Source of the DNA: Candidatus Nanohalobium sp.
Lineage (GTDB): Archaea > Nanohalarchaeota > Nanosalinia > Nanosalinales > Nanosalinaceae
Direction: 5' to 3'
Length of the DNA: 12,891 bases
Assembly (NCBI GenBank): GCA_042217545.1
Contig: JBDGSM010000052.1
Span: forward strand, 1 to 12,891
This document shows, in pieces, positions 1 to 12,891 of this stretch; the stretch's first letter is position 1; every line of letters begins with the position of its first letter. The translations under genes were made by a program, and so were the position numbers. Below the pieces are notes generated by a model. The model was given only the letters and a program-made list of their open reading frames with translations, was not told where the DNA came from and did no database searches.

Positions 1-666
1 CAAGGCCTTTTCTATTCCAGCGGTTCCCGTAATGTTTTTGACTTCGACGCGCTGGCCTCCGTCGATGGAGATGTTCGCATCGGACTTGATGGAGAACTCG
101 GATTCAGGGAAGTAGATCTCCAGGTATTCGAGCATCTGGGCCAGTTGCTGCAGGTAACTTCTTGCTTCCTTCGGAGATCTGAAATCCGGTGCGGTAACGA
201 TCTCGAGCAGCGGTGTGCCTGCCCTGTTGTAGTCCACTTTAGTATATTTTGAGCTTGAGATGCTTCCGCCTTCGTGTTTCATCTTCGCCGGGTCCTCCTC
301 AATGTGAAGCCTGTTGATTCCGATCTCCTTCTTCTCGTCTCCAGTCTTGACCTCTATAGTTCCGTCCTCTCCGACCGGTACCTCGTACTGGGTGATCTGG
401 TAGTTCTTCGACATATCCGGGTAGAAGTAGGTCTTCCTCGAGAAGAAGATGTCCTCGTTGATGTCGCACTGCAGGGCCTGAGATGTCTTCACCGCATATT
501 CTAAGACTTTCTCGTTTAGCCTTGGCTTTGAGCCTGGGTGTCCGAGACAGGTTTCACATACGTGCGTGTTTGGCTCCTCCGCTTCCTCATTGGGGCAGCC
601 GCAGAATAGCTTTGTCTCTGTATCAAGTTGTACGTGCGTCTCAAGGCCTATTTTTACATCGGTCAT
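1..666 (-). CDS. gatB: Asp-tRNA(Asn)/Glu-tRNA(Gln) amidotransferase subunit B (5' part; runs off window edge)
   Basis: Not in ORF track (no stop in window). Hand translation from ATG 666: MTDVKIGLETHVQLDTETKLFCGC...CETCLGHPGSKPRLN...FSRKTYFYPDMSKNYQITQY...RLHIEEDPAK...VDYNRAGTPLLEIVT...KSDANISI...RVEVKNI, which are canonical GatB motifs. Confidence 0.97.
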   Translation of the reverse strand, partial: MTDVKIGLETHVQLDTETKLFCGCPNEEAEEPNTHVCETCLGHPGSKPRLNEKVLEYAVKTSQALQCDINEDIFFSRKTYFYPDMSKNYQITQYEVPVGEDGTIEVKTGDEKKEIGINRLHIEEDPAKMKHEGGSISSSKYTKVDYNRAGTPLLEIVTAPDFRSPKEARSYLQQLAQMLEYLEIYFPESEFSIKSDANISIDGGQRVEVKNITGTAGIEKAL

Positions 667-692
667 AGTATCGTTTCGTTCAGTCATTCTTT

Positions 693-1886
693 TTATTTTG
701 ATCTCGTCGCGGCGAAGTAGGCCAGCTGTTCAAGAAGCATCTTCTCCTTACCATTGACCGGTGAGGCCTCGAGCTCGCCAGCTGCCTCTTCAGCGTAGCC
801 CCTTGCTTCGTCTTCCGCTCTCTTCAAAGCATCTGAGGACTCAACCATCTTACCGGCAAGCTTCAGTTCCCAGGCCTCAGGCTCCTTCTTCCTCAAAACA
901 TGCTTCAGAAACTTCCTGCTGGAACCGTACTCTGTCTCCAGCTCCTCCCTGCCGGAATCTTTATCAAGGCCTTCGATGAACTCCCTGTTCTTGGTGAATC
1001 CATCTTGAAGCTCCTGGATGGCGTAGTATACAGGCAGTGTGACAGTGCCTTCCAAAAGATCGGAGAACCTGTCCTTCCCTATCTCCTGTTCAAGGCCTTC
1101 CCCGGCCCCTATCTCCTCCTCGCCTCCGGTTATATCCAGGATGTCATCTCTGACCTGGAAAGCTTTACCTAACTGTTCTGCGTACTTTTTCAGGTTTCCA
1201 AGTTCTTTTCCTGAGATTACTTCGAGTATCCTGGGACCTGCCTTTATCAAAGGCGTGGTCTTCCTGGCTACGACTTCCTCGTAGAACTTCAGGTATTCAA
1301 AGCTTTCATCTTTCCCGGAAAGCATTTCCCTGAATTTCTCTCCCCGGTATATGCTTTCACCTGCTATGTCAAGCATCTGGCCACGCGAAATATCCTCTAG
1401 TACTCTGTCAAGTATTTCAGCAACTTCCATCTTCTTTTCGTGTTGAATATCAAGTTTCAGAACTGATCTCTGGACTATAGACTGCAGATGCATGACATCA
1501 AGGGTTGCCAGTGACTCTGCCTGTCTCCTGGAGAAACCTATTGACTTGAATTTTTCGTGAGGTGTTTCCAGGCCCCTCCTGACTTGATCCTGGTCCATTA
1601 CATCGTCCTGTATAAGTGAGAGGCCGTGTATAACTTCGAGAGGTATCAAAACTTTGAGAAGCTCTTCCTCAGATAGATCTATATCGAGGCCTTTCGCCAT
1701 GATGTATGGCACAGCGACGCGGAAACGTTTGCCGTCTCCCGTGATCAGCCTGCTGCAGTACTCTTCAACGGTGTTCAGGACTTCTATATCGGCTCCTGTC
1801 CTGTCAACTGTTTCGGCAAGAATTTTCTCTACTTTCTCCAGGGGTACGTAACCTGCCAGCTCCTGCTTCACCTTCTTATCTTCCAA
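693..1886 (-). CDS. Trans-isoprenyl diphosphate synthase (polyprenyl synthetase, GGPPS/IdsA-like family)
   Basis: GKRFR, first Asp-rich motif LIQDDVMDQDQVRRG, GQMLDI, KT, second motif AFQVRDDILD, DLLEGTVTLP. Start moved from track 1937 to the in-frame TTG at 1886, which follows an SD AGGTGAT and avoids a 44-nt overlap with gatA. Confidence 0.92.
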   Translation of the reverse strand: MEDKKVKQELAGYVPLEKVEKILAETVDRTGADIEVLNTVEEYCSRLITGDGKRFRVAVPYIMAKGLDIDLSEEELLKVLIPLEVIHGLSLIQDDVMDQDQVRRGLETPHEKFKSIGFSRRQAESLATLDVMHLQSIVQRSVLKLDIQHEKKMEVAEILDRVLEDISRGQMLDIAGESIYRGEKFREMLSGKDESFEYLKFYEEVVARKTTPLIKAGPRILEVISGKELGNLKKYAEQLGKAFQVRDDILDITGGEEEIGAGEGLEQEIGKDRFSDLLEGTVTLPVYYAIQELQDGFTKNREFIEGLDKDSGREELETEYGSSRKFLKHVLRKKEPEAWELKLAGKMVESSDALKRAEDEARGYAEEAAGELEASPVNGKEKMLLEQLAYFAATRSK

Positions 1887-1892
1887 AAAGTG

Positions 1893-1899
1893 ATCACCT
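1893..1899 (-). promoter_or_regulatory. Shine-Dalgarno (AGGTGAT) overlapping the gatA stop, upstream of the TTG start of the prenyl synthase
   Basis: Complementary to the archaeal 16S 3' end (AUCACCU); contains gatA TGA (1896-1894); 6 nt before TTG 1886. Confidence 0.7.
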
Positions 1900-3255
1900 G
1901 CTGTAGGTATACGCCACGTCAAGGACTTTTTCCTCATCGAAGTGATCGCCGATGATGTGAAGACCTGTCGGCATCTCCTTGCTGGTGCCGTTAGGAACTG
2001 AGATCATTGGTAACCCGGCAAGGTTAGGCCCTACTGTCAGGGTATCCATCGCGTAGACCTCCGCAGGACTCATATCCTGGGCTTCCTCTATCTTCGGTGC
2101 AATATTCGGCATCGAAGGAGAAACAAGTACATCGAACTCTTCAAAGGCCTCCTTGAACTGATTGATAATCTTTTGCCGGACTTCAGCGGCTTTGATGTAG
2201 TACTGATCCCTGTAACCGGCCATCCGCGTATACGTACCGAGCAGGATCCTTCTCTTCGCTTCCTCTCCGAAGCCTTCCGACCTGACCTCCGAGAAGTACT
2301 CGTTGAAGTCCTCGAAATCTTCAGGATCTTTCTCAAGGCCGTACCTCATACCTGACATCTTCGCCAGATTCGTCGAGGCCTCGGCCATCGCCAGAACGTA
2401 GTAAGCAGGAACTGCGTAATCTGCGGATAGAAGAGGCATATCGACTTTTTCTACTTCCGCTCCCATCTCTTTCAGTTCTTCAAGAGAATCTTCAAAGTTC
2501 TCTCTTACTCCGTCTTCAAGGCCTTCAAGCTCCAGGTACTGTTTCGGCACTCCTATCTTTAGGCCTTCTACTTCTTCAAGATTCGAGTATTTAGGTACTT
2601 CTTTTTTCGCTGTGGTCTGATCGTTTTCGTCTTCACCTGCTATCACTTCAAGGCCTTTTGCTGCACCGTACACGTTTTTTGCGAGGACACCGATCTTGTC
2701 CAGTGAGTTAGCATAGTCCACCAGTCCGTACCTTGACACGCGTCCGTATGTAGGTGTTATCCCTACTACGCCGTTGTAAGCTGCAGGATTTGTTATGGAT
2801 CCTCCTGTGGATTCTCCTATCGATATGATCGGATGGTCTACTGCGGCAACGATCGCTCCTGCGCCACCTGAACTTCCTCCTACGACTCTTTCCGGGTCAT
2901 GCGGGTTCTTCGGTGTTGTGAATGCGTTGTTGGTTGAGAAGGTTCCGAAGCCGAACTCATCCTGCTCCGTCTTTCCGAAGAACTGGCCTCCTGCCTCTTT
3001 CAGTCGTTTGACGACTGTGGCGTCGAATACAGGCCTGTAGTCTTCAAGTATCTTTGAACCTGCTGCGGTAGTCGTTCCCTCTGTGCAGATCGCGTCTTTA
3101 ACTACGAAAGGTATGTTTTCGAGCTCTCCCTGATGCTGCTCGCCACGTTTGACCTCTCGCATCAGATCGTATTTCTTATCTGCTTCCTTCAGCTCCTCAA
3201 GAAACTTCTTGCTGTCTACTTCCTCATCTCCCTTGACAACTTTCTCAACCGACAT
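1894..3255 (-). CDS. gatA: Asp-tRNA(Asn)/Glu-tRNA(Gln) amidotransferase subunit A
   Basis: Amidase signature VVKD, GGSSGG, TGGS, PTYGRVSRYGL; GatA-specific AEASTNLA, RSEGFGEEAKRRILLGTY, YYIKA; clustered with gatB and gatC. Confidence 0.97.
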   Translation of the reverse strand: MSVEKVVKGDEEVDSKKFLEELKEADKKYDLMREVKRGEQHQGELENIPFVVKDAICTEGTTTAAGSKILEDYRPVFDATVVKRLKEAGGQFFGKTEQDEFGFGTFSTNNAFTTPKNPHDPERVVGGSSGGAGAIVAAVDHPIISIGESTGGSITNPAAYNGVVGITPTYGRVSRYGLVDYANSLDKIGVLAKNVYGAAKGLEVIAGEDENDQTTAKKEVPKYSNLEEVEGLKIGVPKQYLELEGLEDGVRENFEDSLEELKEMGAEVEKVDMPLLSADYAVPAYYVLAMAEASTNLAKMSGMRYGLEKDPEDFEDFNEYFSEVRSEGFGEEAKRRILLGTYTRMAGYRDQYYIKAAEVRQKIINQFKEAFEEFDVLVSPSMPNIAPKIEEAQDMSPAEVYAMDTLTVGPNLAGLPMISVPNGTSKEMPTGLHIIGDHFDEEKVLDVAYTYSR

Positions 3256-3278
3256 ATCTTCCGTGTTCGGAGGAGAAC

Positions 3279-3286
3279 CTTAAAAA
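3279..3286 (-). promoter_or_regulatory. Probable TATA box of a leaderless gatA transcript
   Basis: TTTTTAAG on the minus strand ending about 24 nt before ATG 3255, the spacing expected for leaderless archaeal genes. Confidence 0.5.
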
Positions 3287-3287
3287 T

Positions 3288-3422
3288 TCATTTCCCGGCT
3301 TCGTCCTCTTCAACGCATTCATCGATATGGAACGTCTGGCCGCATTCAGTACATGTAGGGAAGAGAGGCCTGTATCCCTTGAAAGCCATCTGTCCCCCGC
3401 ATTCAGGACAGAAATAGGTCAT
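3288..3422 (-). CDS. 44-aa CPxCG-type zinc-finger micro-protein
   Basis: Below ORF-track cutoff. MTYFCPECGGQMAFKGYRPLFPTCTECGQTFHIDECVEEDEAGK: two CxxCG knuckles, acidic tail, and an ATGA overlap (3422-3419) with the upstream gene's stop. Confidence 0.88.
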   Translation of the reverse strand: MTYFCPECGGQMAFKGYRPLFPTCTECGQTFHIDECVEEDEAGK

Positions 3423-3913
3423 GAGGCCTCGATCCTGTGAAACTCCAGTTCACGGTTTTCAGTATCCATTGTCGCGACATGAAACCTTTCCTCCTGATCA
3501 GGAAATCTGATGCCGCCAGGATTCACCTCTACCGTTCCAGAATGCTCGGCAACCTTCTTCTCATGTGTGTGACCGCGGAACACGAAGTCGTAATCTTTCC
3601 CCACAAGGCCTTCCACAATCTCCTCCTCGGTCCCGTGGTAGACGCAGATTTTCAGGCCTTCAACTTCCAGTTCTGCGATGTTGTTGTAGAACTCTCCGAA
3701 CTGGTTCACCGTCGATTTCAGGTTCCATTCTCCATCGTTGTTGCCTCTGACAGCGTGGAACTCGAACTCTGCGTCAAAAAGCTCTGCTGTGAAAGGCGCA
3801 ACCATGTCTCCGCAGTGAATCACTACTTCACATTCCTGCTTCTCGAAAAAGTTTACTGCTTCCTCCGCTAGTTCGATGTTATCGTGTGTGTCCGAGACTA
3901 TTCCAAGTTTCAT
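3419..3913 (-). CDS. Calcineurin-like metallophosphoesterase (MJ0936/YfcE/Vps29 family)
   Basis: SDTHDN, HCGD, VRGNND, YHG, GHTH and NPG motifs. ATG 3913 (MKLGIVSDTH) preferred over track TTG 3919. Confidence 0.93.
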   Translation of the reverse strand: MKLGIVSDTHDNIELAEEAVNFFEKQECEVVIHCGDMVAPFTAELFDAEFEFHAVRGNNDGEWNLKSTVNQFGEFYNNIAELEVEGLKICVYHGTEEEIVEGLVGKDYDFVFRGHTHEKKVAEHSGTVEVNPGGIRFPDQEERFHVATMDTENRELEFHRIEAS

Positions 3914-3983
3914 AACCAAGGTTCTCGGGCTCGAAACTTATCTATTTTTGCGAGACTGGAACCGGGTCAGCATAAAGAAATTT

Positions 3984-4205
3984 CTAGGTGAATGTCATTT
4001 TTCCCTTCCGATCGTAGTAGTTTTCAAGAAGTTCTTCTTCCGTCATATCAAGGACTGCTGAGAACCCGTCGTTCTCTATTTTTTCACCCAGTTCCCCGAC
4101 CCTGACTCCTTCCACATCAGTGGCCTTGAACGAGTAGGCCGTGCCTTTGAGATCCCTGTAGATGTCCCTGCTGTCTAGCTCGGTTATGTCGTTGCAGACG
4201 TACTC
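3984..4205 (-). pseudogene. Out-of-frame C-terminal continuation (73 codons) of the 4184..4786 gene
   Basis: Open frame EYVCNDITELDSRDIYRDLKGTAYSFKATDVEGVRVGELGEKIENDGFSAVLDMTEEELLENYYDRKGKMTFT*. It is acidic and protein-like, has no start codon near its 5' end, and overlaps the end of the upstream ORF in the -1 frame. Confidence 0.75.
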
Positions 4206-4786
4206 TCAGCCATGATCCTTACTAGTGATTCGTCTATCCCTTTCAGGCCTGCTGCTTCAAAGAACCTTTCGTAGGCTTCCTCCCCGTACTCCTCCTGGAC
4301 ATAGTCAGCCTGGCGGAGAAGCAGGTCACGGTTGAAATCCGGGTTGACCCTGAAATCGTCCTCGCTCAACTGGAAAATCTGATTCAGAGTTTCGTGATCC
4401 AGATCTTTCAGCCATTCAGTAAGCATGCCTTCAGTCATCAACTCCCACATATCCCTGAAGTCGTACTCCAGCTCCGGGACATCAAAGTTATCCCTGAAGT
4501 AGGTATGTGAGGCTTCATGCACCTCTGTCTTCCTTTCCTCGATGCCTTTGAAGGAAAGGCTAGACAGATTGCCCTCCACCAATCTGTGGTTCTTATGGTC
4601 AAACTCGGGAAAGATCACGGACTTCCACTGATCCTCCCGGGGATCAAAATGACCGCTGCTGGCCGTCTCACCTACCACATCAATCTCGACTTCAGGAAGA
4701 ACATCCGTATCCACGCCGATCCAGTTGTAGAACCGCTTGACCTCGCCTTCAATAAAGTCCTCAGAAACATGGTAATCAGTATTCAA
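4184..4786 (-). CDS. Hypothetical zincin-like metallopeptidase (HExxH), apparently truncated by a frameshift
   Basis: EVHEASHTYF followed 24 residues later by an EG motif (LMTEGML) that could supply the third Zn ligand. TTG start at 4786 with SD GAGGTGG at 4797-4791. Confidence 0.7.
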   Translation of the reverse strand: MNTDYHVSEDFIEGEVKRFYNWIGVDTDVLPEVEIDVVGETASSGHFDPREDQWKSVIFPEFDHKNHRLVEGNLSSLSFKGIEERKTEVHEASHTYFRDNFDVPELEYDFRDMWELMTEGMLTEWLKDLDHETLNQIFQLSEDDFRVNPDFNRDLLLRQADYVQEEYGEEAYERFFEAAGLKGIDESLVRIMAESTSATT

Positions 4787-4802
4787 AGTTCCACCTCAAA
4801 TT

Positions 4803-5081
4803 TCAGGCGCTCGGCCCTCTGAAAAAACCTTCCTCCTCGTTCTCCGTGTTCCGGAAGACCTTCTCCCTCGTCAGAGTATCTTCTTTCTCATCGCTTCTGG
4901 TATCAGGACTTACATCGACAGGATGGAAAGCAGGTTCAACATCTTCAGTATCGATCTCCTCCAGTTTCTCGAACATCTCCAGGACCTCATCGAAGTCCTC
5001 GGCGAACTCAGAGGCCTCTTCCCCAGTTACATTAATCCTGGCGTTCTCTGCCACTTCCTGAACTTTATCCGAATCTACCAT
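4803..5081 (-). CDS. gatC: Asp-tRNA(Asn)/Glu-tRNA(Gln) amidotransferase subunit C
   Basis: 92 aa: VAENARI, VLEMFEKLEEIDTEDVEP, RSD, EEGFFRGP, typical of GatC; same strand as gatA and gatB. Confidence 0.93.
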   Translation of the reverse strand: MVDSDKVQEVAENARINVTGEEASEFAEDFDEVLEMFEKLEEIDTEDVEPAFHPVDVSPDTRSDEKEDTLTREKVFRNTENEEEGFFRGPSA

Positions 5082-5211
5082 GAAGTTAAAGTTGAGACCT
5101 CAGATTTTTGTATCAATTTGTTTCCCCGAAGTGAAGGCCTTTCAGCTCTGAAAAACTTCTCGATGAACAGTCGTGAACAGTTAAGGTTTCCGAAAACTAT
5201 CGTCGAATTAT

Positions 5212-5226
5212 GGGAAGATTTATAAA
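5212..5226 (+). promoter_or_regulatory. BRE-like purine tract plus TATA box (GGGAAGA-TTTATAAA)
   Basis: Best consensus TATA in the window (5219-5226) with purine-rich sequence immediately upstream on the plus strand; implies a TSS near 5250, about 260 nt before ftsZ. The TATA is palindromic, so orientation rests on the BRE. Confidence 0.6.
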
Positions 5227-5272
5227 CGATCCCTGAAAATGTTTGGATAAGCAAGATACAGATACAGATTTG

Positions 5273-5429
5273 AGTCTCTTCGTTTGGGCGCGGAGGGCTG
5301 CGTTCGAACTTGACTCGCGGGCACGAGTGAAGTTCAGTGGACTTGCGAAATATGTAGCATGTTTGAGTTTCGAACTTGGGCAAGTTCGAAGTCGAATGTT
5401 GAATGTTTCGAGTCTTGGGCAAGACTCAA
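5273..5429 (+). ncRNA. Candidate structured RNA or ftsZ 5' leader: four stem-loops with a GGGC apex
   Basis: Stems 5276-5297 (CTCTTCGT/GCGGAGGG with G-U pairs, loop TTGGGC), 5306-5335 (GAACTT-g-ACTCG/CGAGT-g-AAGTTC, loop CGGGCA), 5369-5390 (TTCGAACTT/AAGTTCGAA, loop GGGC), 5410-5427 (GAGTCTT/AAGACTC, loop GGGC). Confidence 0.5.
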
Positions 5430-5507
5430 TTAGTTCTAAGGTAGGATTACCTATACCGACTTAAAAAGGTTTGGTATGGCTAGACCGCACCGCAGGTTGA
5501 TACTACA

Positions 5508-6584
5508 ATGGAATCCATAATCGAAAACGCTCAAACGGACGAAAAATCCACTGAAAACCTTGATGAAATGAAAGATGCTAAAATTATAGTAGTAGGAGTT
5601 GGAGGAGCTGGTAACAACCAGGTCACCAGGATACAGAAGAAAGAAGTTGAAGGTGCCGAGACGGTTGCCATCAACACGGACAAACAGCACCTGGAGATGT
5701 CCTCCGCCGACAGAAAAATACTTGTAGGAAAAGATCTTACACGAGGCCTCGGAGCTGGCGGCAAACCTGAGAAAGGAGCACGCTCAGCAGAAGAGAACCG
5801 TGCCGAACTACGTAACCTGTTCAAGGATGCAGACATGGTCTTCCTCACAGCAGGAATGGGAGGCGGAACAGGAACAGGAGCAGCACCAGTCCTCGCAGAA
5901 ATTGCAAAGAAAGAAGACTGCATCGTGATCGGAACAGTAACAATGCCGTTCGAGATCGAAGGCGCAAGAATGAGTAAAGCAGAAGACGGCCTCTACAGGC
6001 TCAGGCAGCACGTGGACACAGCAATCGTCATCGAAAACGACAAGCTGCTTGACATCGCAGGAGATATGCCTCTCGACCAGGCCTTCGGAGTCGCAGATGA
6101 GCTCATCACAACGATGATCAAGGGAATCACGGAAACGATCGCAAAGCCGTCACTAGTCAACCTGGACTACGCAGACGTCCAGGCGATCATGAACGAAGGA
6201 GGAGTCGCGGTAGTAGGCTACGGAGAAAGCGACACCAACAACAAGGGAGAGGAAGCAATCCACGAAGCACTATCCAACCCACTCCTCGACGTAGAGTTCA
6301 GCGGAGCAAACGGAGCACTCCTACACGTGGCAGGAGGAGAAGACCTGACACTCAACGAGATCAACGATGTAGGTCAGAGAGTGAAACAGAAGCTTGACAA
6401 ACAGGCCCAGGTAATCTGGGGCGCAAGAATCAGAGACGACCTGAAAGGCAAGCTACAGGTAATCTCCATCGTAACAGGAGTTGAATCACCTTACGTCCTA
6501 GGCGACCTAGACGAACAGAAAGAACAGGAAACAGAAGTAACAGGAGACGTCAACGACCTAGGCCTTGAGGTGATGAACGGCTGA
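5508..6584 (+). CDS. ftsZ: Cell division protein FtsZ (archaeal FtsZ2-like)
   Basis: GVGGAGNN, AINTD, GLGAGG, signature GMGGGTGTG, T7 loop PSLVNLDYAD. The LDYAD, GGVAV and IWGARI motifs resemble FtsZ2; C-terminal LGLEVM tail. Confidence 0.98.
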   Translation: MESIIENAQTDEKSTENLDEMKDAKIIVVGVGGAGNNQVTRIQKKEVEGAETVAINTDKQHLEMSSADRKILVGKDLTRGLGAGGKPEKGARSAEENRAELRNLFKDADMVFLTAGMGGGTGTGAAPVLAEIAKKEDCIVIGTVTMPFEIEGARMSKAEDGLYRLRQHVDTAIVIENDKLLDIAGDMPLDQAFGVADELITTMIKGITETIAKPSLVNLDYADVQAIMNEGGVAVVGYGESDTNNKGEEAIHEALSNPLLDVEFSGANGALLHVAGGEDLTLNEINDVGQRVKQKLDKQAQVIWGARIRDDLKGKLQVISIVTGVESPYVLGDLDEQKEQETEVTGDVNDLGLEVMNG

Positions 6585-6609
6585 AAAACAAGAGCCGGCT
6601 AAAATGATA

Positions 6610-6795
6610 TTAGAGGAGGAAAGTCAACTTCAAACCCCCCCCTCACCTCCGACTTTCCTCCCCTAAAACCTATATTTCAACGGCAGGAAAAGGAGATTCC
6701 CGCAGTTCAATCTTCCGGAAACCCCACAGGTTTTCGGCTTGAACACGAAAACTCCCCCTCCCCCCCTTACGCGGGAATCGCCTTCACATCCTGCC
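6610..6795. other. Two long inverted-repeat structures with C-rich loops downstream of ftsZ (candidate sRNA, 3' UTR structure or terminator)
   Basis: A: TTAGAGGAGGAAAGTC (6610-6625) / GACTTTCCTCCCCTAA (6651-6666), 15/16 paired. B: GGCAGGA/TCCTGCC, AAGG/CCTT, GATTCCCGC/GCGGGAATC enclosing GTTCAA/TTGAAC and CCGGAAACC/GGTTTTCGG (6682-6795). Confidence 0.7.
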
Positions 6796-6870
6796 TTACT
6801 CTTTATTACTAACTCCTTCCCAAAGATCCAGGGAAAACTGTTTAACTCTTCGGCCGTAATAACAAATTCA

Positions 6871-7371
6871 GTGGATAACCAGAACTTCTACCTCAAAATA
6901 TCAGGAGCAGCTATCTCAGTAATACTTGCAGCCTCAGCACTAATTCTCAACACAGGAATCCGAGGCCTTACCGCAGCAGCATTCACAGCAGCCGCAGCAG
7001 TACTGATCCGGAGCGCCGAGAAAAGCTCCCGGAAAACAGGAAGAACGGACAGGATGAAGGCAACCCTCAAAGCAGTAAAACCTGCAGCAGAACTTATACT
7101 GATCTCCTCAGGCCTGATCAGCTACTCGCCAACCACAACAGTATCAACAGCAGTAATAGGCCTTGTATCCTTCTCCGAGATCTTCTCCAGAGGAGGCCTG
7201 GAATCACAAGAGTTCTTCGGCCAGGAAGTCCGCACCGGATTACTGATCCTTACCTTCATAGGCCTCACATTCAACGAATACATCCTGTTCTACGGTCTTA
7301 TCGCAGTAGGCCTTGTCGCAGCATTTGACTCGCTCTACATGCTGTACGAATCCATGGATACCGGTTTTTAA
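6871..7371 (+). CDS. Polytopic membrane protein (166 aa), possible degenerate CDP-alcohol phosphotransferase homolog
   Basis: About 5-6 hydrophobic segments. Start moved to GTG 6871 because a TATA-like TTTAAC (6841-6846) preceded by GGAAAA lies about 25-30 nt upstream, and the track's N-terminal extension runs through the hairpin region. Confidence 0.8.
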   Translation: MDNQNFYLKISGAAISVILAASALILNTGIRGLTAAAFTAAAAVLIRSAEKSSRKTGRTDRMKATLKAVKPAAELILISSGLISYSPTTTVSTAVIGLVSFSEIFSRGGLESQEFFGQEVRTGLLILTFIGLTFNEYILFYGLIAVGLVAAFDSLYMLYESMDTGF

Positions 7372-7449
7372 GGCCTTTCTGGCTTTGTTTTGAGAGCTGT
7401 TGTGTTGTGTTCCTCAAGTATTTAATTTTTCCCGCACCCTTTGTTTTGT

Positions 7450-7953
7450 ATGAAGGCTCCAATCTGTAATGTATGTCTAAAGAGCGATGTTCTCTGCAGC
7501 AAGTGTGGGGAGAAGCTGGAAAACGGAGAGATCTCAGAACTCGAAATCGAAGTATCAAGGATCCTGAAGGATCTAAGCAGTGAGTACGGCTCACTGAGAG
7601 ACTCAGAGATCCTTCACGTCTACGACACTGAAAATGTCGTCATCATAGTAACTGCAGAAGGCGACGGAGCAAAAGTCGTAGGCAGAAGCGGCGAGATCGT
7701 CAAAAAGGTCGCGGAAGAGATTGACAAGTCGATCAGAGTAGTCGAGAAAAGCGAGGACGACAGAGATGTTATCAAAGGCCTTTTGAGCCCTGCTGAAGTT
7801 GAAAGTATCAACACAGTCTTCAGTCCAGAGGGCGAGTACAAGAAGGTCGTCGTCAGCGACGAGTACGAGGGCAAGATCAACCTCAGTGAAGACGAGTTCG
7901 AAGAGATCATCGAAGAGATCACAGACACCAAGTACGAACTCTCCTTCGAATAA
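7450..7953 (+). CDS. Archaeal NusA-like protein with N-terminal Zn-binding motif and KH domain
   Basis: MKAPICNVCLKSDVLCSKC (CxxC-x6-CxxC); KH loop VVGRSGEIVKKV...IRVVE. ATG 7450 with TATTTAAT at 7419-7426. Confidence 0.88.
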   Translation: MKAPICNVCLKSDVLCSKCGEKLENGEISELEIEVSRILKDLSSEYGSLRDSEILHVYDTENVVIIVTAEGDGAKVVGRSGEIVKKVAEEIDKSIRVVEKSEDDRDVIKGLLSPAEVESINTVFSPEGEYKKVVVSDEYEGKINLSEDEFEEIIEEITDTKYELSFE

Positions 7954-8056
7954 AGCATCGCTCACAGATCTCTCAACTTTTCTTTTTCCTATTGAAGGCC
8001 TTCAACGCTTTCTGGCTGCGGTCGGTATTAAAATTCTTCAGGTAAACTTTCTAGAT

Positions 8057-9883
8057 ATGACGACAGACAAAAACAGCAAAAGTTTTATCGTGGCGATCGA
8101 CCAGGAGAAGATCGAGCCAGACCTGGCCCGGGAGACAGTAGTCAAGTACGATCCACTGAACAGGGCAGGAAAAGAGGGAGGTTTCCACGTAACGGAGGAA
8201 GGACAGCTCCACATCGACAACGAGAAGGTGATGGAGGCCCACAAGATGGCTATAAACAAGTACCCTCATGAAGGAGCCATCAAACTTATCCGGCTTGACA
8301 GGGAGTTCGGGGAGAAGATCCACCAGTTCGGGGAAAACGCTTTCCGACTGTACGGACTACCGGAACCGCAGGAAGGCCGCGTAGTGGGAATCCTCGGAAG
8401 AAACGGAATCGGAAAATCCACCGCACTAAAAATACTATCCGGCGACATCAAGCCGAACCTCGGAAACTATGAGGACGCTCCTGACTGGAAGAAGATTCAG
8501 GAAGAATACAGAGGGACAGGCCTCCAGGAACACTTCAACAAGCTAGCGGAAGGAAACGTAGAGGCCTCCTATAAACCGCAGCAGGTGGACAAGATACCAG
8601 AGTTCCACGACGGAGAAGTAGGAGAACTCCTGGAGAAAGCGGACGAGAAAGACGCAGCGGAGAAGTTCGCTGAAAAACTTGACATCGACCATCTACTGGA
8701 CAGGGATATCGACGAGCTTTCAGGAGGAGAGCTGCAGAGAGTGGCGATCGCATCCTGCCTCGTAAAAGATTCTTCTATTTATGTAATCGACGAGCCTTCC
8801 TCATTCCTGGACGTTAAACAGCGTCTGAACGTGGGAAGAGCGATCCAGGAACTTGGAGAGGAGAAGAGTGTTCTAGTGGTAGAGCACGACCTGGCGACTC
8901 TGGACCTGGTCTCCTCGGCGATCCACGTCTTCCACGGAGAGCCGGGAGCATACGGAATGGTGTCGAACGCATTAAGCACCAGAGAGGGAATCAACCAGTA
9001 CCTCGAAGGCTACCTGAAGACACACAACCTGAGAATAAGAGACGACTCCATAAGCTTTGACAGGACGAAGAGAAGCCAGGTGGAGAAGAAAGCTGAAACA
9101 CTGAGCTTCCCTGAGATGAAGAAGAACTTTGGGGAAGACGAGTTCCAGCTAGAGACAGAAGCCGGTGCACTACACGAAGAAGAGATACTCGCGATATTCG
9201 GAGAGAACGGGGTCGGAAAGACCACTTTCGCAAAGATGCTCGCAGGCGCCCTGAAGCCTGAAGAAGGCGAGACACCTGAGGCCTCGGTCAGCTACAAAGC
9301 GCAATATCTAGAAGCAAAGGACGAAAGAGTCGACACCGCGATCAGCAAACATGTCAACCCTGAGTCGAAGAAGTTCAAGGCCAGGATCGCAGAACCGTTA
9401 GGCCTTGAAGACCTGTACGAACAGAACCTGCAGGAACTTTCCGGAGGAGAGCTACAGCGCGTAGGAATCGCGATCTGCCTCGCAAGAGAAGCGGACGTTT
9501 ATCTCCTGGACGAGCCATCAGCCTATCTGGATGTCGAATCCCGTGTAGAGCTAGGTAAGGCCCTGAAACGGTTCGCGAGAAAGACGGAAAAGCCGCTCAT
9601 GGTTATCGACCACGACCTCCTCCTTCTCGACTACATCGCGGACAGGGGAATGGTCTTCACAGGAGAACCAGGAAAAAGCGGGAAGACCACCGAGCCATTG
9701 AAGATCGAAGAGGCGATGAACGAGTTCCTGAAAGAAGTCGACATCACCTTCAGAAGAGACCCTGAGACCGGAAGGCCTCGCGCCAACAAGTCTGGTAGCC
9801 AGAAAGACAAAGAGCAGAGGAAGAACGACGAGTTCTACGAACAGAAAGCACTGAAGAAAAACAGTGATGACGACGATGAATAG
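8057..9883 (+). CDS. rli: Ribosome recycling ATPase ABCE1/Rli1 (N-terminal FeS-type domain lacks cysteines)
   Basis: FRLYGLPEP, Walker A GRNGIGKST and GENGVGKTT, two LSGGELQR signatures, DEPS Walker B, EHD/DHD H-loops, hinge TFRRDPETGRPRANK. Start moved to ATG 8057 (TATTAAAA at 8026-8033); the track's extension is a low-complexity off-frame overlap with the upstream gene. Confidence 0.97.
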   Translation: MTTDKNSKSFIVAIDQEKIEPDLARETVVKYDPLNRAGKEGGFHVTEEGQLHIDNEKVMEAHKMAINKYPHEGAIKLIRLDREFGEKIHQFGENAFRLYGLPEPQEGRVVGILGRNGIGKSTALKILSGDIKPNLGNYEDAPDWKKIQEEYRGTGLQEHFNKLAEGNVEASYKPQQVDKIPEFHDGEVGELLEKADEKDAAEKFAEKLDIDHLLDRDIDELSGGELQRVAIASCLVKDSSIYVIDEPSSFLDVKQRLNVGRAIQELGEEKSVLVVEHDLATLDLVSSAIHVFHGEPGAYGMVSNALSTREGINQYLEGYLKTHNLRIRDDSISFDRTKRSQVEKKAETLSFPEMKKNFGEDEFQLETEAGALHEEEILAIFGENGVGKTTFAKMLAGALKPEEGETPEASVSYKAQYLEAKDERVDTAISKHVNPESKKFKARIAEPLGLEDLYEQNLQELSGGELQRVGIAICLAREADVYLLDEPSAYLDVESRVELGKALKRFARKTEKPLMVIDHDLLLLDYIADRGMVFTGEPGKSGKTTEPLKIEEAMNEFLKEVDITFRRDPETGRPRANKSGSQKDKEQRKNDEFYEQKALKKNSDDDDE

Positions 9884-10121
9884 AGAGAAAATAGATATCG
9901 ATAGAGGAGACAACGACATCGTCTTCGTAAGGCCTGAACTCGACATGGAGGACGTATCAGAGAAAGAAGACCCGAGAAACTTTCTTGAAGAAAAGATGAA
10001 ACAGGAAGGCCTTGAATGGGAGAACGCCCGGATAATAGGCCTGTTCCAGGACGAGTTCACACTGATGCTGGACACCAAAGGAAAGGTCCTGCTCGACGGC
10101 GAAGAAGTATACAGCCACTGA
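9876..10121 (+). CDS. Hypothetical acidic protein (~81 aa)
   Basis: MNREKIDIDRGDNDIVFVRPELD...; overlaps the ABCE1 stop, has an SD-like AGTGAT at 9863-9868, and matches host composition. ATG 9867 is an alternative start. Confidence 0.8.
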   Translation: MNREKIDIDRGDNDIVFVRPELDMEDVSEKEDPRNFLEEKMKQEGLEWENARIIGLFQDEFTLMLDTKGKVLLDGEEVYSH

Positions 10122-10160
10122 CCAAAAGGCCTACAAGTTTTTCGGTTCGAAACACTTTCT

Positions 10161-11084
10161 ATGACAGACTGGACCGCAGACGACATGCCGGATCTCAAAG
10201 GTAAAACCGTTATCGTTACAGGAGCTAACTCAGGCCTAGGATTCGAAGCTACAAAGGAACTCGCCCGGAAAGGCGCAAATGTAACGATGGCATGCAGGAG
10301 CATCGAACGCGGGAAAAACGCGAAAGAAGAGATAGAGAAAGAAATTCCCGGGGCCTCTCTCGAGGTAAGACAGCTTGATCTTGCAAGCCTTGAATCGATC
10401 GACGAGTTTGCGGAAGAGTACAAGGCCAACCATGAAGAACTCGATATACTCTGCAACAACGCAGGCCTCATGAACATTCCAAGACAGGAAACGGAGGACG
10501 GCTTCGAAAAACAGTTCGGCGTAAACCACCTCGGACACTTCGCACTAACATCAAAACTTCTCCCAGTACTGAAGAAAGCCGAAGAGGCAAGGATCGTGAC
10601 ACAGAGCTCAGGCCTCCATGAGAGAGGAAGAATCAACTTCAACGATCTTATGAAAGAGGGAAAATATGATTCAGGACAGGCCTACGCAGACTCAAAGCTG
10701 GCCAACGTCCTGTTCGCCTACGAACTTGACAGGAAGATCAGGAGGGAAGGCCTCGACATGAAATCGGTCGCTGCCCACCCCGGTTTCGCAGCCACGAACC
10801 TTCAGAACGCCGAGGAGAACGATAACTTCTTCCTGAAAGAGCTCGGTATGAAGGCCTTCACGAAAATCTTTGCACAGAGTGCTGCCAAAGGCGCTCTGCC
10901 TATGCTATACGCTGCGTCGGCTTCATATGTTGAAGGCGGCGAATACATCGGGCCAGGAGGTCTGATGAATATGAGAGGTCTTCCAGAGAAACAGGAAAGT
11001 TCAGAGGCCTCTTATGACACAGAGACGGCTGAAGAGCTGTGGGCTGTAAGCGAGGAGTTGACAGGCCTGAGTTTTGAGGTCTAG
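10161..11084 (+). CDS. Short-chain dehydrogenase/reductase (retinol dehydrogenase/WWOX-like subgroup)
   Basis: TGANSGLG, LDLAS, NNAG, FGVNHLGHFALT, catalytic YADSK, HPG, LWAVSEELTG. Confidence 0.96.
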   Translation: MTDWTADDMPDLKGKTVIVTGANSGLGFEATKELARKGANVTMACRSIERGKNAKEEIEKEIPGASLEVRQLDLASLESIDEFAEEYKANHEELDILCNNAGLMNIPRQETEDGFEKQFGVNHLGHFALTSKLLPVLKKAEEARIVTQSSGLHERGRINFNDLMKEGKYDSGQAYADSKLANVLFAYELDRKIRREGLDMKSVAAHPGFAATNLQNAEENDNFFLKELGMKAFTKIFAQSAAKGALPMLYAASASYVEGGEYIGPGGLMNMRGLPEKQESSEASYDTETAEELWAVSEELTGLSFEV

Positions 11085-11437
11085 CTTAATGTGCCTCGCC
11101 ACAGGTCGAGGCCTGGAATACTCAGGTATGTTTCCTCGTTTGCGCTGAGGTAGAAAAGTGGTTCTTGATCCTGTTCGACAGCTACTTTCAGGTCTCCGCC
11201 GTCTATCTCCATGTACTGCTGGACGTTTTCCTCTCCGCCGAAGGAGTCTACAAGGCGTTCGTATCTGTCACCCAGATCTGTCTTCCACTTCATCTCGGTA
11301 TCATCCGGGTAGGAGATCTCTGCACGCCCCATGACCTGCAGCTGGCTTCTCACCTGTTCTGTGTCTGTAGGCCTCAAAGATTCACGTACAACGCTCCAGT
11401 TATCCCCCGGCTCCCAGCTATTCCTTGAAATGTACAT
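11081..11437 (-). CDS. Hypothetical protein (~118 aa)
   Basis: Acidic ORF filling the gap between SDR and Nudix genes; its stop overlaps the convergent SDR stop in CTAG (11081-11084). ATG 11437 preferred over TTG 11446. Confidence 0.8.
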   Translation of the reverse strand: MYISRNSWEPGDNWSVVRESLRPTDTEQVRSQLQVMGRAEISYPDDTEMKWKTDLGDRYERLVDSFGGEENVQQYMEIDGGDLKVAVEQDQEPLFYLSANEETYLSIPGLDLWRGTLS

Positions 11438-11510
11438 AGGAAACAATTAACGGCAAAAATCTAAAAGAGAACCGGCACACCTAAAAAATTCTACACAGCA
11501 AAAGCTTTCC

Positions 11511-12461
11511 ATGGACAAAGTTCCCGTCTCAAAAGGCCTGATAGAGAACGAAAACGGAGAGTTCCTGATGCTGAAGAAAGCCGAAGACTACGACTTCACA
11601 GCAGGAAAATGGGAACAGCCAGGTGGACGCATCCAGAAACTGGATGCTCCTAACAGCATCTCTGCTGGAGATGCGGATGGAAAGATAGAGGAAAGGGAAA
11701 ACCGGTTCGAAGCTTTGAAACGTGAAGTGAAGGAGGAGACAGGCCTTGAGATCGAAGAGTCTGAGGATCTTGTAAGGATCGAGCTGGAGGACGAAAACCA
11801 TATCAACTGCTACGTACTTCACAGCTCCGACTTTTCAGGCGAGATCGAACTCTCCGGGGAACACGAAGATTTCTGCTGGGTAAGGCCTGAAAAGTTCTCC
11901 GAACTGGAATGGCATAGAGACTCCGCCTACATCCTTCCCCCGGGACGTTACTGCGAGAAATACCTGAAAGACGAGAGAGATTACGGTTCCGGCATGGAGA
12001 TCGCAGTCGTCAAGGCCCTGGTACAGAACGAGGAAGGAAAGTTCCTCGCTGTGAAGAAATCTGTTATAGAGAAGGTCTCCTCCGGCCAGCGGTTCAAAAA
12101 ATACGGCGACATGAGCGGGAAATGGGGGCTACCTGGCGGCAGGATAGGTAAAAGGAAAGATGAGGACCGGTTCGAGGCCCTGGGGCGGGAGCTGGCTGAG
12201 GAGCTTGGTATTGAAGTTTCTGGAGGCGTTGATGTTGTACGTGAGGAGATCGAGGAGGAGAACACTGTAGACGTGTTCATCGTCCTGTTAAGGCCTGATG
12301 ACTGGAGCGGTCAGGTCGAGCTTTCCGAGGAGCATTCAGCTTTTGAATGGGTGAGGCCTGATGAATACCTGGAACTGGACTGGCATAAGGACGCGGGCTA
12401 CGGTTACTCACCGATGAAGTTTCTGGACGAGTACAAGGATATGGATCTGCGGTATGAATGA
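11511..12461 (+). CDS. Tandem double-domain Nudix hydrolase
   Basis: Nudix boxes GKIEERENRFEALKREVKEETGL and GGRIGKRKDEDRFEALGRELAEELGI; each domain ends with LSxEHxxFxWVRP..LxWHxD. Confidence 0.94.
   Translation: MDKVPVSKGLIENENGEFLMLKKAEDYDFTAGKWEQPGGRIQKLDAPNSISAGDADGKIEERENRFEALKREVKEETGLEIEESEDLVRIELEDENHINCYVLHSSDFSGEIELSGEHEDFCWVRPEKFSELEWHRDSAYILPPGRYCEKYLKDERDYGSGMEIAVVKALVQNEEGKFLAVKKSVIEKVSSGQRFKKYGDMSGKWGLPGGRIGKRKDEDRFEALGRELAEELGIEVSGGVDVVREEIEEENTVDVFIVLLRPDDWSGQVELSEEHSAFEWVRPDEYLELDWHKDAGYGYSPMKFLDEYKDMDLRYE
11624..11681. mobile_element. 54-nt in-frame palindromic insertion bounded by a TGGA direct repeat
   Basis: TGGA at 11624-11627 and 11678-11681; terminal inverted repeat CGCATC/GATGCG; hairpins GCATCCAG-AAA-CTGGATGC and GCATCTC-TGCTG-GAGATGC. 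Removing 11628-11681 restores WEQPGGKIEERE. Confidence 0.62.
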
Positions 12462-12470
12462 CTGTTCAGG

Positions 12471-12476
12471 TTTTTT
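12471..12476 (+). terminator. Oligo-T tract after the Nudix gene (archaeal intrinsic terminator candidate)
   Basis: TTTTTT starts 10 nt after the TGA at 12459-12461. Confidence 0.4.
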
Positions 12477-12520
12477 CAACAGGATTTCGGATTTAAGTTT
12501 TTGATACAGTGTACAGGTTC

Positions 12521-12891
12521 ATGGGGGAATGGGGTGAACCGGTTAGAAGTTTTCTTAACGGCGACAACCCTTCTGATCCCTCTGATTTCGCCCGGTTGAT
12601 GGGCTCTAAAGTCCCGGGCTGGCATCCTTCTCAGGTTTCTCCTCCAAGCGGTGAAGAATCAGTCGACCGCGATCCGATGAGAGAAGGCGATGCACAGATG
12701 ATCGCGAATAGCTTTGAACGGATGGTCGCCGAGGATTACTCAGGAAAGAATATCAGCGACGGTAAGGACTCTGAAGGAGAGGCCGACGTCGTTGTAGGCC
12801 TTAACGACCGAGCTTACGGCTGGCCGATCCAGGTGAAGTCCTGTCTCATGTACAGGATGGACAGCAGTTCGGACAGAGGCTACAGGCCTGG
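12521..12891 (+). CDS. Putative PD-(D/E)XK superfamily nuclease (5' part; runs off window edge)
   Basis: Not in track. MGEWGEPVRSFLNGDNPSDP...IANSFERMVAEDYSGKNISDGKDSEGEADVVVGLNDRAYGWPIQVKSCLMYRMDSSSDRGYRP shows a helix-E ... AD-hhh ... hQhK pattern. TATA-like ATTTAAGT at 12491-12498. Confidence 0.65.
   Translation, partial: MGEWGEPVRSFLNGDNPSDPSDFARLMGSKVPGWHPSQVSPPSGEESVDRDPMREGDAQMIANSFERMVAEDYSGKNISDGKDSEGEADVVVGLNDRAYGWPIQVKSCLMYRMDSSSDRGYRP

Follow-up and report, generated by a model that had tools for sequence, protein, structure and literature searches.

A conserved, promoter-preceded array of GGGC-capped hairpins directly upstream of an ftsZ gene in nanohaloarchaea

In the bacterial RNAs CsrB, RsmY and RsmZ, several short hairpins with unrelated stems present one G-rich word, A(N)GGA, in loops of 4–6 nt, alongside unpaired copies of the same word; these RNAs have promoters of their own with a rare upstream activator site, and their genes are untied to those of their targets. 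The transferrin-receptor mRNA carries about five iron-responsive elements (IREs) in its eukaryotic 3′ untranslated region, where hairpins with variable stems, a bulged C and a constant CAGUGN hexaloop are read by one protein, the iron regulatory protein (IRP), whose occupancy sets the fate of the mRNA. Guanidine-II (mini-ykkC) riboswitches consist only of small tandem hairpins, two in number, with covarying stems and conserved tetraloops, their self-complementary ACGR loops kissing directly before the Shine-Dalgarno (SD) sequence; in the Escherichia coli thrS operator, the loops resemble an anticodon loop. Repetitive extragenic palindromic (REP) sequences, bacterial interspersed mosaic elements (BIMEs) and miniature inverted-repeat transposable elements (MITEs) also form clusters of imperfect palindromes in intergenic spacers, in tens to hundreds of dispersed copies with conserved stems. 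In the Halobacteria, a protein-based module has been described immediately before a cell-division gene: two reports describe cdrS as co-transcribed with, and directly upstream of, ftsZ2 (Darnell et al. 2020, PMC7439475; Haloferax volcanii CdrS, mBio 2021, PMC8406309), and the first of them states that Halobacterium CdrL binds only the cdrS-ftsZ2 promoter, and that CdrS is found in every archaeal group except DPANN (PMC7439475). Described here is an array of GGGC-capped hairpins directly upstream of ftsZ in Candidatus Nanohalobium sp. (Nanohalarchaeota), on contig JBDGSM010000052.1 of assembly GCA_042217545.1 (positions 1 to 12,891 of the forward strand; this whole 12,891-nt stretch is referred to below as the window).

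Within the gatC–ftsZ spacer, which spans 426 bp as the preliminary description of this DNA had it (5082–5507), four hairpins had been noted from the letters alone, differing in their stems and constant at the apex, and all four are present at those places (Table 1), the apices between 5276 and 5427 reading (U)UGGGC or CGGGCA on mutually unrelated stems. The stem of hairpin 2 had been placed correctly and read too short, as ACTCG, its real arms being 12 nt long; the core of hairpin 3 consists of perfect 10-nt arms (5369–5378 and 5381–5390) around GG. Directly 3′ of hairpin 4 lies the T-rich stretch AATTAGTTCT (5428–5437), and two further small hairpins, also listed earlier, follow at 5442–5453 (TAGGATTACCTA) and 5468–5486 (GGTTTGG/CTAGACC). 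The plus strand of 5230–5507 folds at -91 kcal/mol (z = -3.18), a value reached by 0 of 200 shuffles, and the minus strand at -66.4 kcal/mol (z = -2.54), with 3 of 200 shuffles as low. A cmscan search of the whole window against Rfam, on both strands and up to E = 1, returned no match in the spacer.

The array is shared across the phylum. From 30 genomes of the same phylum and from public contigs, ftsZ-upstream DNA was collected and identical copies removed to give 54 distinct regions, in which words were counted from the first TATA box onwards, leaving out the 55 nt that immediately precede the ATG. All 54 hold GGG[CA] words, three in 5 loci, four in 17, five in 22, six in 7 and seven in 3, and the strand asymmetry is extreme, with 256 such words on the ftsZ strand against a single complement ([TG]CCC) in 9906 nt. 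The flanking consensus is U (78%) U (83%) GGG followed by C (82%) or A (18%). Of the 250 hairpin loops in minimum free energy structures, 165 contain the word, compared with 101 of 1609 loops after dinucleotide shuffling; the folding z averages -3.4. At least three words cap a stem of 5 bp or more in 44 of the 54 loci and at least two in 52, the weakest loci (L047 and L049) having one each; words outside hairpins also occur, mostly at the 3′ ends of the arrays. The same design was recognised by eye in four further regions, G025 (family f2), G028 (f5), G037 (f3) and G040 (f4), and the array is conserved in all five families sampled within the phylum. As marks of a candidate family, a TATA box of the upstream promoter (P1, below), at least three sense-strand (U)UGGG[CA] words lying mostly at apices, a TTAAAAA block and ftsZ are all found in the window; among the 54 relatives, P1 is present in 50, three or more words in every one, and three or more capped words in 44. 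A strand-specific, promoter-preceded array with variable stems and a constant apex, as first proposed from the one sequence, is thus conserved in 54 of 54 relatives, and the observation is confirmed as real and far beyond chance.

The preliminary description had also named what would speak for a dispersed repeat, namely many copies elsewhere. Loose 5-bp stems around GGGC are indeed common in the assembly (1.03 Mb, 92% complete, in which the window is contig C48), capping 274 of 3952 occurrences (6.9%; 5.6–8.0% for ten other tetramers), as chance inverted repeats or a REP/MITE-like element would have it, but three or more hairpin-capped GGGC words on one strand within 200 nt are found at a sole site, this spacer, which has five. 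The word CTTGGGCAAG occurs twice in the assembly, both times inside the spacer; with the only capped-GGGC cluster of the genome here and this word nowhere else, the element is real, local and non-dispersed, and together with its presence in all 54 relatives and the 0 of 200 shuffles that fold as well, this leaves chance or a dispersed repeat a negligible probability. A strict pattern of three TTGGGC/TKGGGC words spaced 12–42 nt apart matches 35 of 70 phylum genomes (the genome of the window misses it, its words being too widely spaced), and in each of the 35 all matches overlap at one place. That place is directly upstream of ftsZ in 21 of the 22 matching genomes in which the position of ftsZ was established; in the exception, G025, the strict match lies on another contig and looks like chance, and the region before its ftsZ has hairpins and five GGGC words. 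The single locus seen in each matching genome, and the single copy here, exclude the dispersed-repeat alternative on the earlier description's own terms. Among 80 of at least 121 metagenome stretches matching the triple TTGGGC, none carries an FtsZ relative (tblastn) and none the array architecture. Two further identities were considered and rejected: a CRISPR (clustered regularly interspaced short palindromic repeats) array, since the direct repeats are only partial (10–14 nt), their spacing irregular and the stems different, and an archaeal replication origin, since there is no orc1/cdc6 among the 13 open reading frames (ORFs) scanned in the window and the repeat units have variable stems.

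Pairing in the stems exceeds expectation and, in part of the sample, covaries. Ungapped stems of at least 5 bp lie under 183 of the 256 words and of at least 7 bp under 134, against 19.5% and 7.3% in a partner-swapped, alignment-free control in which each word is given the 3′ flank of a word from a different genome, a control that is generous since orthologous hairpins share stems; the loop-proximal 5-nt arms comprise 72 distinct sequences. Covariation was counted in a set of 22 of the 54 regions (A3), with rows chosen for recognisably orthologous first three hairpins of the UUGGGC type (L018, with a differing third hairpin, was dropped) and with 25 pairs in a structure hand-written by the analyst. 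There, 88.2% of cells are paired, compared with 79.6% after partner shuffling and 19–46% when slid, and double-sided changes occur in 13 of 25 pairs, amounting to 58 cells where 24.6 ± 4.3 are expected (0 of 500 shuffles). Orthologues of hairpin 1 have other stems (TTCACGC, GTTCGTG, TTCGTC and others) with double-sided changes in 4 of 7 pairs; in hairpin 2 the outer pairs covary, and the inner ACTCG/CGAGT, identical in all 22 rows, is uninformative for covariation; and orthologues of hairpin 3 show double-sided changes in 6 of 9 pairs, with 95.4% of cells paired.

As the stems diverge, the loops change together. UUGGGC accounts for 82 of the 183 loop words on stems of 5 bp or more, with GGGC, CGGGCA and GUGGGA also represented. 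In nine genomes of a GGGA type, GGGA words outnumber GGGC by 38 to 1, usually as GUGGGA or UUGGGA, and in the 45 others GGGC outnumbers GGGA by 209 to 8; the hairpins of G028 (family f5) show UUGGCG. On a quick maximum-likelihood FtsZ tree (53 rows, one short sequence being left out, and the careful search incomplete), three changes are required to account for the GGGA state, and well-supported branches force at least two of these. It is unlikely that gene conversion between hairpins spread the new word, because the stems within one array are unrelated. A common reader with a shifted preference is the simplest explanation for this concerted change, which is our chief reason for proposing that a single partner, acting in trans, recognises several sites.

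Salt-in halophiles have high internal K+, and a K+-dependent G-quadruplex formed, in the RNA or in the DNA strand, from at least four apical GGG tracts might sense or exploit that molar K+ and so set ftsZ expression; four or more GGG[CA] words are present in 49 of 54 arrays, with a GGG core that is invariant by motif definition. The tracts, however, are held in the loops of stable hairpins at a median of 31 nt apart, far over the usual G-quadruplex loop lengths, 5 of the 54 arrays have only three of them, the f5 word UUGGCG has two Gs, and the conserved UU before GGG and the concerted C or A after it are left unexplained, so that we assign a quadruplex a very low probability. It likewise seems unlikely that the array is a passive structured ftsZ 5′ leader, giving protection from decay or slowing the polymerase with no reader and with the apex kept as a stable loop. 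Its place directly upstream of ftsZ in every genome would suit such a role, as would the hint (below) that longer transcripts matter, but a passive leader needs no single hexamer in all loops, no 256:1 strand purity, no unpaired extra copies and no joint switch to GUGGGA or UUGGCG.

A partner made of RNA would equally yield the concerted change. The UUGGGC apices, exposed on stable hairpins, could act as seeds that kiss GCCCAA words in one or more target RNAs, the target word altering as the loops do, making of the array a multi-seed antisense regulator. GCCCAA is nonetheless missing from the plus strand of the 12.9-kb window, ftsZ mRNA included, and is rare genome-wide (89 copies over both strands, 38 of them in the sense strands of long ORFs), and six bases confer little specificity; we give RNA–RNA pairing a small chance. 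UUGGGC itself is avoided in the sense strands of long ORFs, with 15 occurrences against 67.4 ± 6.5 after synonymous-codon shuffling (z = -8); its ratio of 0.22 is the lowest of 15 related words, CUGGGC and AUGGGC standing at expectation, and this avoidance offers weak support for a reader. All UUGGN words are depleted in ORF sense strands (ratios 0.29–0.55), being 2–5 times rarer than the codon shuffling predicts, and antisense GCCCAA has a ratio of 0.66.

A resemblance to transfer RNA was also noticed. The anticodon arm of tRNA-Pro(GGG) (G000:C41:14900-14973), GCACG-CUGGGGG-CGUGU, is similar to the first hairpin of many relatives, for example TTCACGC-TTGGGC-GCGTGAA, and in the apices U-UGG-G and C-GG-G a proline anticodon is followed by G37. 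Mimicry of anticodon arms by the array loops, in the manner of the thrS operator, may be entertained as an idea only: the array loops are mostly of 6 nt and not 7, U33 is absent from the CGGGCA and GUGGGA loops, and the downstream gene is ftsZ, not proS or trm5. ARAGORN predicts 18 tRNA genes in the 92%-complete assembly with introns disallowed and 22 with introns allowed, several predictions having long introns.

The array is preceded by a conserved candidate promoter, P1. Archaeal promoters have an A-rich transcription factor B recognition element (BRE) on the 5′ side of the TATA box and start at a fixed usual distance from it; the A-rich flank of the first TATA box, TTTATAAA, is on its 5′ side and fits a BRE, which orients P1 on the plus strand. 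The sequence RAAsA-TTTATAAA-s recurs 204–348 nt before the ATG in 50 of the 54 distinct relatives and is invariant in alignment A1, TTTATAAA having a genome-wide count of 16; the start of this box precedes the first GGG by a median of 54.5 nt (46–87). From the usual archaeal geometry, a putative start would lie near 5247–5251 (ATAAG). The promoter had earlier been called strong: the BRE and TATA box are conserved, and strength is a reading of that conservation, not a measurement. Some 40–55 bp upstream of the TATA box lies a tandem of TGAACAGT with a 10-bp period, and TGAACR-N4-TGAACR occurs once in the 1.03-Mb assembly, at this place. In relatives, copies of TGAACRGT lie 20–80 nt upstream of the first TATA box, often in tandem with the same period, and at least two TGAACR/YGTTCA words are found within the 110 nt upstream in 36 of 50 loci, one in 5 and none in 9. 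To judge from its sequence and rarity, the TGAACAGT tandem looks like a candidate site or operator of a dedicated, single-target transcription factor.

Between the array and ftsZ there is a second conserved block, whose consensus across relatives is TTCTAAGGTAGAATTACCTATRCCG-mYTTAAAAAGG-TTAGGYATAG. It contains the small palindrome at 5442–5453, an inverted repeat X (5450–5457) / X′ (5473–5479) and, between X and X′, a TATA-like TTAAAAA, the candidate box of a second promoter, P2. TTAAAAA is invariant in alignments A1 and A2 and is present a median of 43 nt (35–79) before the ATG in 48 of the 50 loci with the first TATA box; similar TTTAAAA boxes are carried by tRNA genes of the same genome. 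X pairs with X′ in 70.5% of cells compared with 63.9% after shuffling, with double-sided changes in 6 of 8 pairs, and RNAalifold finds no stable consensus in the block (-0.13 kcal/mol; 43 of 46 rows, L012, L017 and L062 being excluded for long inserts). A transcript from P2 would have a leader of only about 8–16 nt (the box lies 35–45 nt from the ATG in most genomes), barely including the SD-like GGnTGAT, which hints that longer, P1 read-through transcripts matter. The SD-like GGTTGAT, which we take to be a match to the 16S 3′ end, is represented in relatives by GGCTGAT, GTGATG and GGACGAT.

Table 1. Coordinates of the hairpin array and of the promoter and coding features around it (positions in the window)
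Feature	Position	Strand	Description
Tandem direct repeat	5164-5181	+	TGAACAGT-N2-TGAACAGT, 10-bp period, ~40-55 bp before TATA box 1
Candidate promoter P1	5212-5226	+	BRE-like, purine-rich GGGAAGA (5212-5218) and TATA box TTTATAAA (5219-5226)
Hairpin 1	5276-5283 / 5290-5297	+	arms CTCTTCGT / GCGGAGGG, loop TTGGGC, 8 pairs including 3 G-U
Hairpin 2	5306-5317 / 5324-5335	+	12-nt arms GAACTTGACTCG / CGAGTGAAGTTC, 92% complementary, loop CGGGCA
Hairpin 3	5367-5392	+	arms (GT)TTCGAACTT / AAGTTCGAA(GT), apex GGGC at 5378, loop word CTTGGGCAAG
Hairpin 4	5410-5417 / 5420-5427	+	arms GAGTCTT / AAGACTC, apex GGGC at 5417
Conserved 3′ block	5434-5486	+	TTCTAAGGTAGAATTACCTATRCCG-mYTTAAAAAGG-TTAGGYATAG
Second TATA-like box (P2 candidate)	5461-5467	+	TTAAAAA between X and X′, 47 nt before the ATG
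SD-like sequence	5495-5501	+	GGTTGAT, 7-13 nt before the ATG
ftsZ	5508-6584	+	Pfam Tubulin and FtsZ_C; TIGR00065, 405.6 bits

From the anatomy, conservation, strand asymmetry, stem covariation, concerted loop change and single-copy status of the array, we infer transcription, the ends of the RNA, the existence and nature of a reader, and an effect on ftsZ. P1 would transcribe the plus strand through hairpins 5276–5427, probably in response to a factor bound at the unique TGAACAGT tandem. The apical word alone would be under sequence constraint, as UUGGGC here and as GUGGGA or UUGGCG in other clades, and the loops, with some unpaired copies of the word, would supply multiple sites for a single reader acting in trans, most probably a protein that binds RNA. 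The specificity of this reader would have shifted in step with the loops, and by binding several molecules of it the RNA would couple it to expression of the downstream gene, which is FtsZ2-like (below). This coupling could take a route in cis, in which a leader of about 260 nt runs into ftsZ and the reader acts on termination ahead of the gene, on mRNA stability or on translation, or a route in trans, in which a separate RNA of about 180–190 nt ends after hairpin 4 and titrates the reader, ftsZ being started from P2; the two seem about evenly balanced. For the route in trans, the T-rich stretch that follows hairpin 4 could mark a 3′ end, with the weak hint that a simple terminator scan selects hairpin 4 and its tail, as a consensus match only, with 2 matches found in the region against 2.6 expected. 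We lean, if only slightly, towards an RNA driven from P1 and linked to control of the FtsZ2-type gene, on which a number of UUGGGC loops are presented to a single reader that co-evolves with them. In a more specific form of this interpretation the RNA would be multivalent in the manner of CsrB, turned on by way of a promoter site found once in the genome, and would control the FtsZ2-type gene by capturing several copies of an RNA-binding protein through UUGGGC loops, the specificity of that protein having co-evolved with the loops at least twice; this form is put forward tentatively, as possible and still doubtful.

Several observations weigh against an RNA with a dedicated reader. The covariation counts rest on an analyst-chosen subset (22 of 54 regions) and on a hand-written structure, and plain MAFFT alignment with RNAalifold over 46 rows (L026, L030, L031 and L032, which lie furthest away among the 50 TATA-bearing loci, being excluded) recovers only hairpin 2, the others being missed because gaps in the loops shift them out of register in the MAFFT alignment. 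Helices selected as RNA usually carry many more G-U than A-C juxtapositions, whereas mismatches inside the stems, counted where two Watson-Crick pairs adjoin on either side, comprise 14 G-U, 16 A-C and 15 others (56 G-U against 50 A-C in a looser count). The absence of a G-U excess fits DNA-level palindromes, or else fast birth and decay of hairpins, under which selection would favour the presence of several apices without acting on the individual pairs. This absence also divides the earlier argument that G-U pairs reveal the transcribed strand, which holds for hairpin 1 of the window, with its three such pairs, and falls across the relatives; the strand call rests instead on the 256:1 word asymmetry and on the promoter. 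Of candidate readers, the 92%-complete assembly has no match to CsrA (PF02599), for which control genomes were positive, and none to a DbpA-type RNA-binding domain. The KH protein encoded nearby, proposed earlier as a speculative ligand, is not supported as one, belonging to a widespread NusA-like family that is also present in four well-known archaeal genomes, and in an alignment of the 27 of 54 loci with near-complete sequence no column separates GGGA-type from GGGC-type loops. The avoidance of UUGG words in ORFs could be an effect of codon context. Finally, the 3′ block can be read in two ways, as a candidate ftsZ core promoter, P2, with an operator, or as an RNA stem-loop, leaving the transcript architecture two-way.

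The mismatch counts would suit a DNA-level explanation, in which the palindromes would be extruded as hairpins or cruciforms, perhaps from the non-template strand while it is transcribed or replicated, with the apex read by a DNA-binding protein or supercoiling tuned at the ftsZ promoter. Apices are read in this manner at single-strand origins and HUH-nuclease sites; template-switch renewal, like DNA palindromes generally, would leave G-U and A-C mismatches in such similar numbers, and the 3′ block and the TGAACAGT tandem resemble protein-binding DNA. Set against these are a BRE and TATA box that point into the array in 50 of 54 regions, an apex word confined to one strand at 256:1, and a locus that is syntenic and single-copy phylum-wide, unlike mobile HUH or REP elements, with no Orc1/Cdc6 and no transposase among the 13 window ORFs scanned; the DNA-level explanation seems improbable.

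The gene downstream of the array is one of two ftsZ paralogs, which are 50% identical. Compared with FtsZ1 of Methanocaldococcus jannaschii (PDB 1W58), the FtsZ of the window scores 350 bits and the second paralog (G000:C26:24866-25978; L214:467-1579) 420 bits, which is suggestive, from comparison with the FtsZ1 reference alone, of an array that precedes the more divergent, FtsZ2-like paralog. The second paralog has a short upstream region and no array; a TATA-like TTTTTATATA lies about 50 nt before its ATG, and it is preceded by an ORF that looks FKBP-type on reading of the translation. The idea that the array occupies the position held by cdrS in cdrS-ftsZ2 operons gains support from the divergent FtsZ paralog downstream and from CdrS being reported missing from DPANN by Darnell et al. 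(PMC7439475), and a positional analogy between the two seems reasonable. Both would be dedicated regulatory modules directly upstream of an FtsZ2-type gene, and the single promoter reported for CdrL has a counterpart in the TGAACAGT tandem, genome-unique here. They differ in content: the halobacterial module is a gene for a small ribbon-helix-helix (RHH) protein, and here there are hairpins and promoter boxes, with no match to RHH (PF01402) among the ORFs that overlap the spacer.

By architecture the array may be likened to CsrB/RsmZ or to an array of IREs, yet it is a member of no known family. The likeness to CsrB drawn in the preliminary description stands for the architecture, which extends to the unpaired word copies, the array's own promoter and the rare upstream site, and fails for family membership: the loops are UUGGGC, GUGGGA and UUGGCG and not GGA, the host is archaeal, there is no Rfam match and no CsrA gene, and the array is fixed beside ftsZ throughout the phylum. 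With the transferrin-receptor IREs it shares several hairpins with variable stems and a constant loop that one protein could read, differing in its loop and in lying 5′ of the gene. Compared with guanidine-II riboswitches it has 3–7 hairpins, with loops that are not self-complementary and that lie 80–230 nt from the SD sequence, and no Rfam match; unlike REP, BIME and MITE sequences it sits at a single site in each genome, and it is the loops that are conserved and the stems that vary. In the literature on nanohaloarchaeal non-coding RNAs, UUGGGC hairpins, ftsZ1-linked small RNAs or leaders, and cdrS/ftsZ2, no description of the element was found, nor any RNA linked to ftsZ. STRG.4577.1 (266 nt) of Gelsinger et al. 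(PMC7002113), from the habitat of SG9, the closest named relative, has a length that fits the distance from P1 to the ATG (about 260 nt), and may or may not be the array RNA; were it the same, expression of the array would already be documented. The element is thus real, phylum-wide, single-copy and so far undescribed as a structured element.

Upstream of the array, gatC (4803–5081) is on the minus strand; downstream of ftsZ follow a poorly conserved, membrane-like ORF, the gene for the Zn-ribbon/KH NusA-like protein (7441–7953, NF005013), which is syntenic downstream of ftsZ in 58 loci, and RLI. The closest public record for the window FtsZ is that of 'Nanohaloarchaea archaeon SG9' (96% identical), with Ca. 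Nanohalobium and Ca. Nanosalina next. Four ORFs (73–115 aa) overlapping the spacer were compared with Pfam up to E = 1, and none gave a match. The ORF after ftsZ (6739–7371, 210 aa) has no Pfam or NCBIfam match, looks hydrophobic and evolves fast, with 53% identity to the closest relative whose FtsZ is 96% identical, and is detectable in 17 loci. As listed (7799–9883, with TTG at 7799), the RLI ORF overlaps the Zn-ribbon/KH gene and its NCBIfam match begins at residue 97, so that its true start is probably near 8087. A strong hairpin at 6611–6665 (GAGGAGGAAAGTC ... GACTTTCCTCC, with a C-rich loop) lies 27 nt past the ftsZ stop, where it may form a terminator-like or regulatory structure ahead of the following ORF; its minus strand gives the only Rfam match in the window, to mir-627 (6605–6672; E = 0.69), which is far under the gathering score and is attributed to chance.

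To our knowledge, no mechanism is known by which cell division is regulated in DPANN archaea. If the interpretation given here is true, an RNA device of a kind not known in archaea controls an FtsZ2-type gene in a lineage that, like other DPANN archaea, is reported to lack CdrS; it would be the first archaeal protein-titrating RNA, or protein-gated leader, and would give a handle on division timing in an obligate symbiont. The array would enter RNA databases as a well-defined new family, its loop word is usable as bait for the reader and its unique upstream DNA site for the transcription factor, and co-cultures of cultivated nanohaloarchaea with their hosts exist. Conserved, single-copy, linked to one ftsZ and bearing the marks of a co-evolving reader, the array offers a concrete entry point to the control of division in DPANN archaea.

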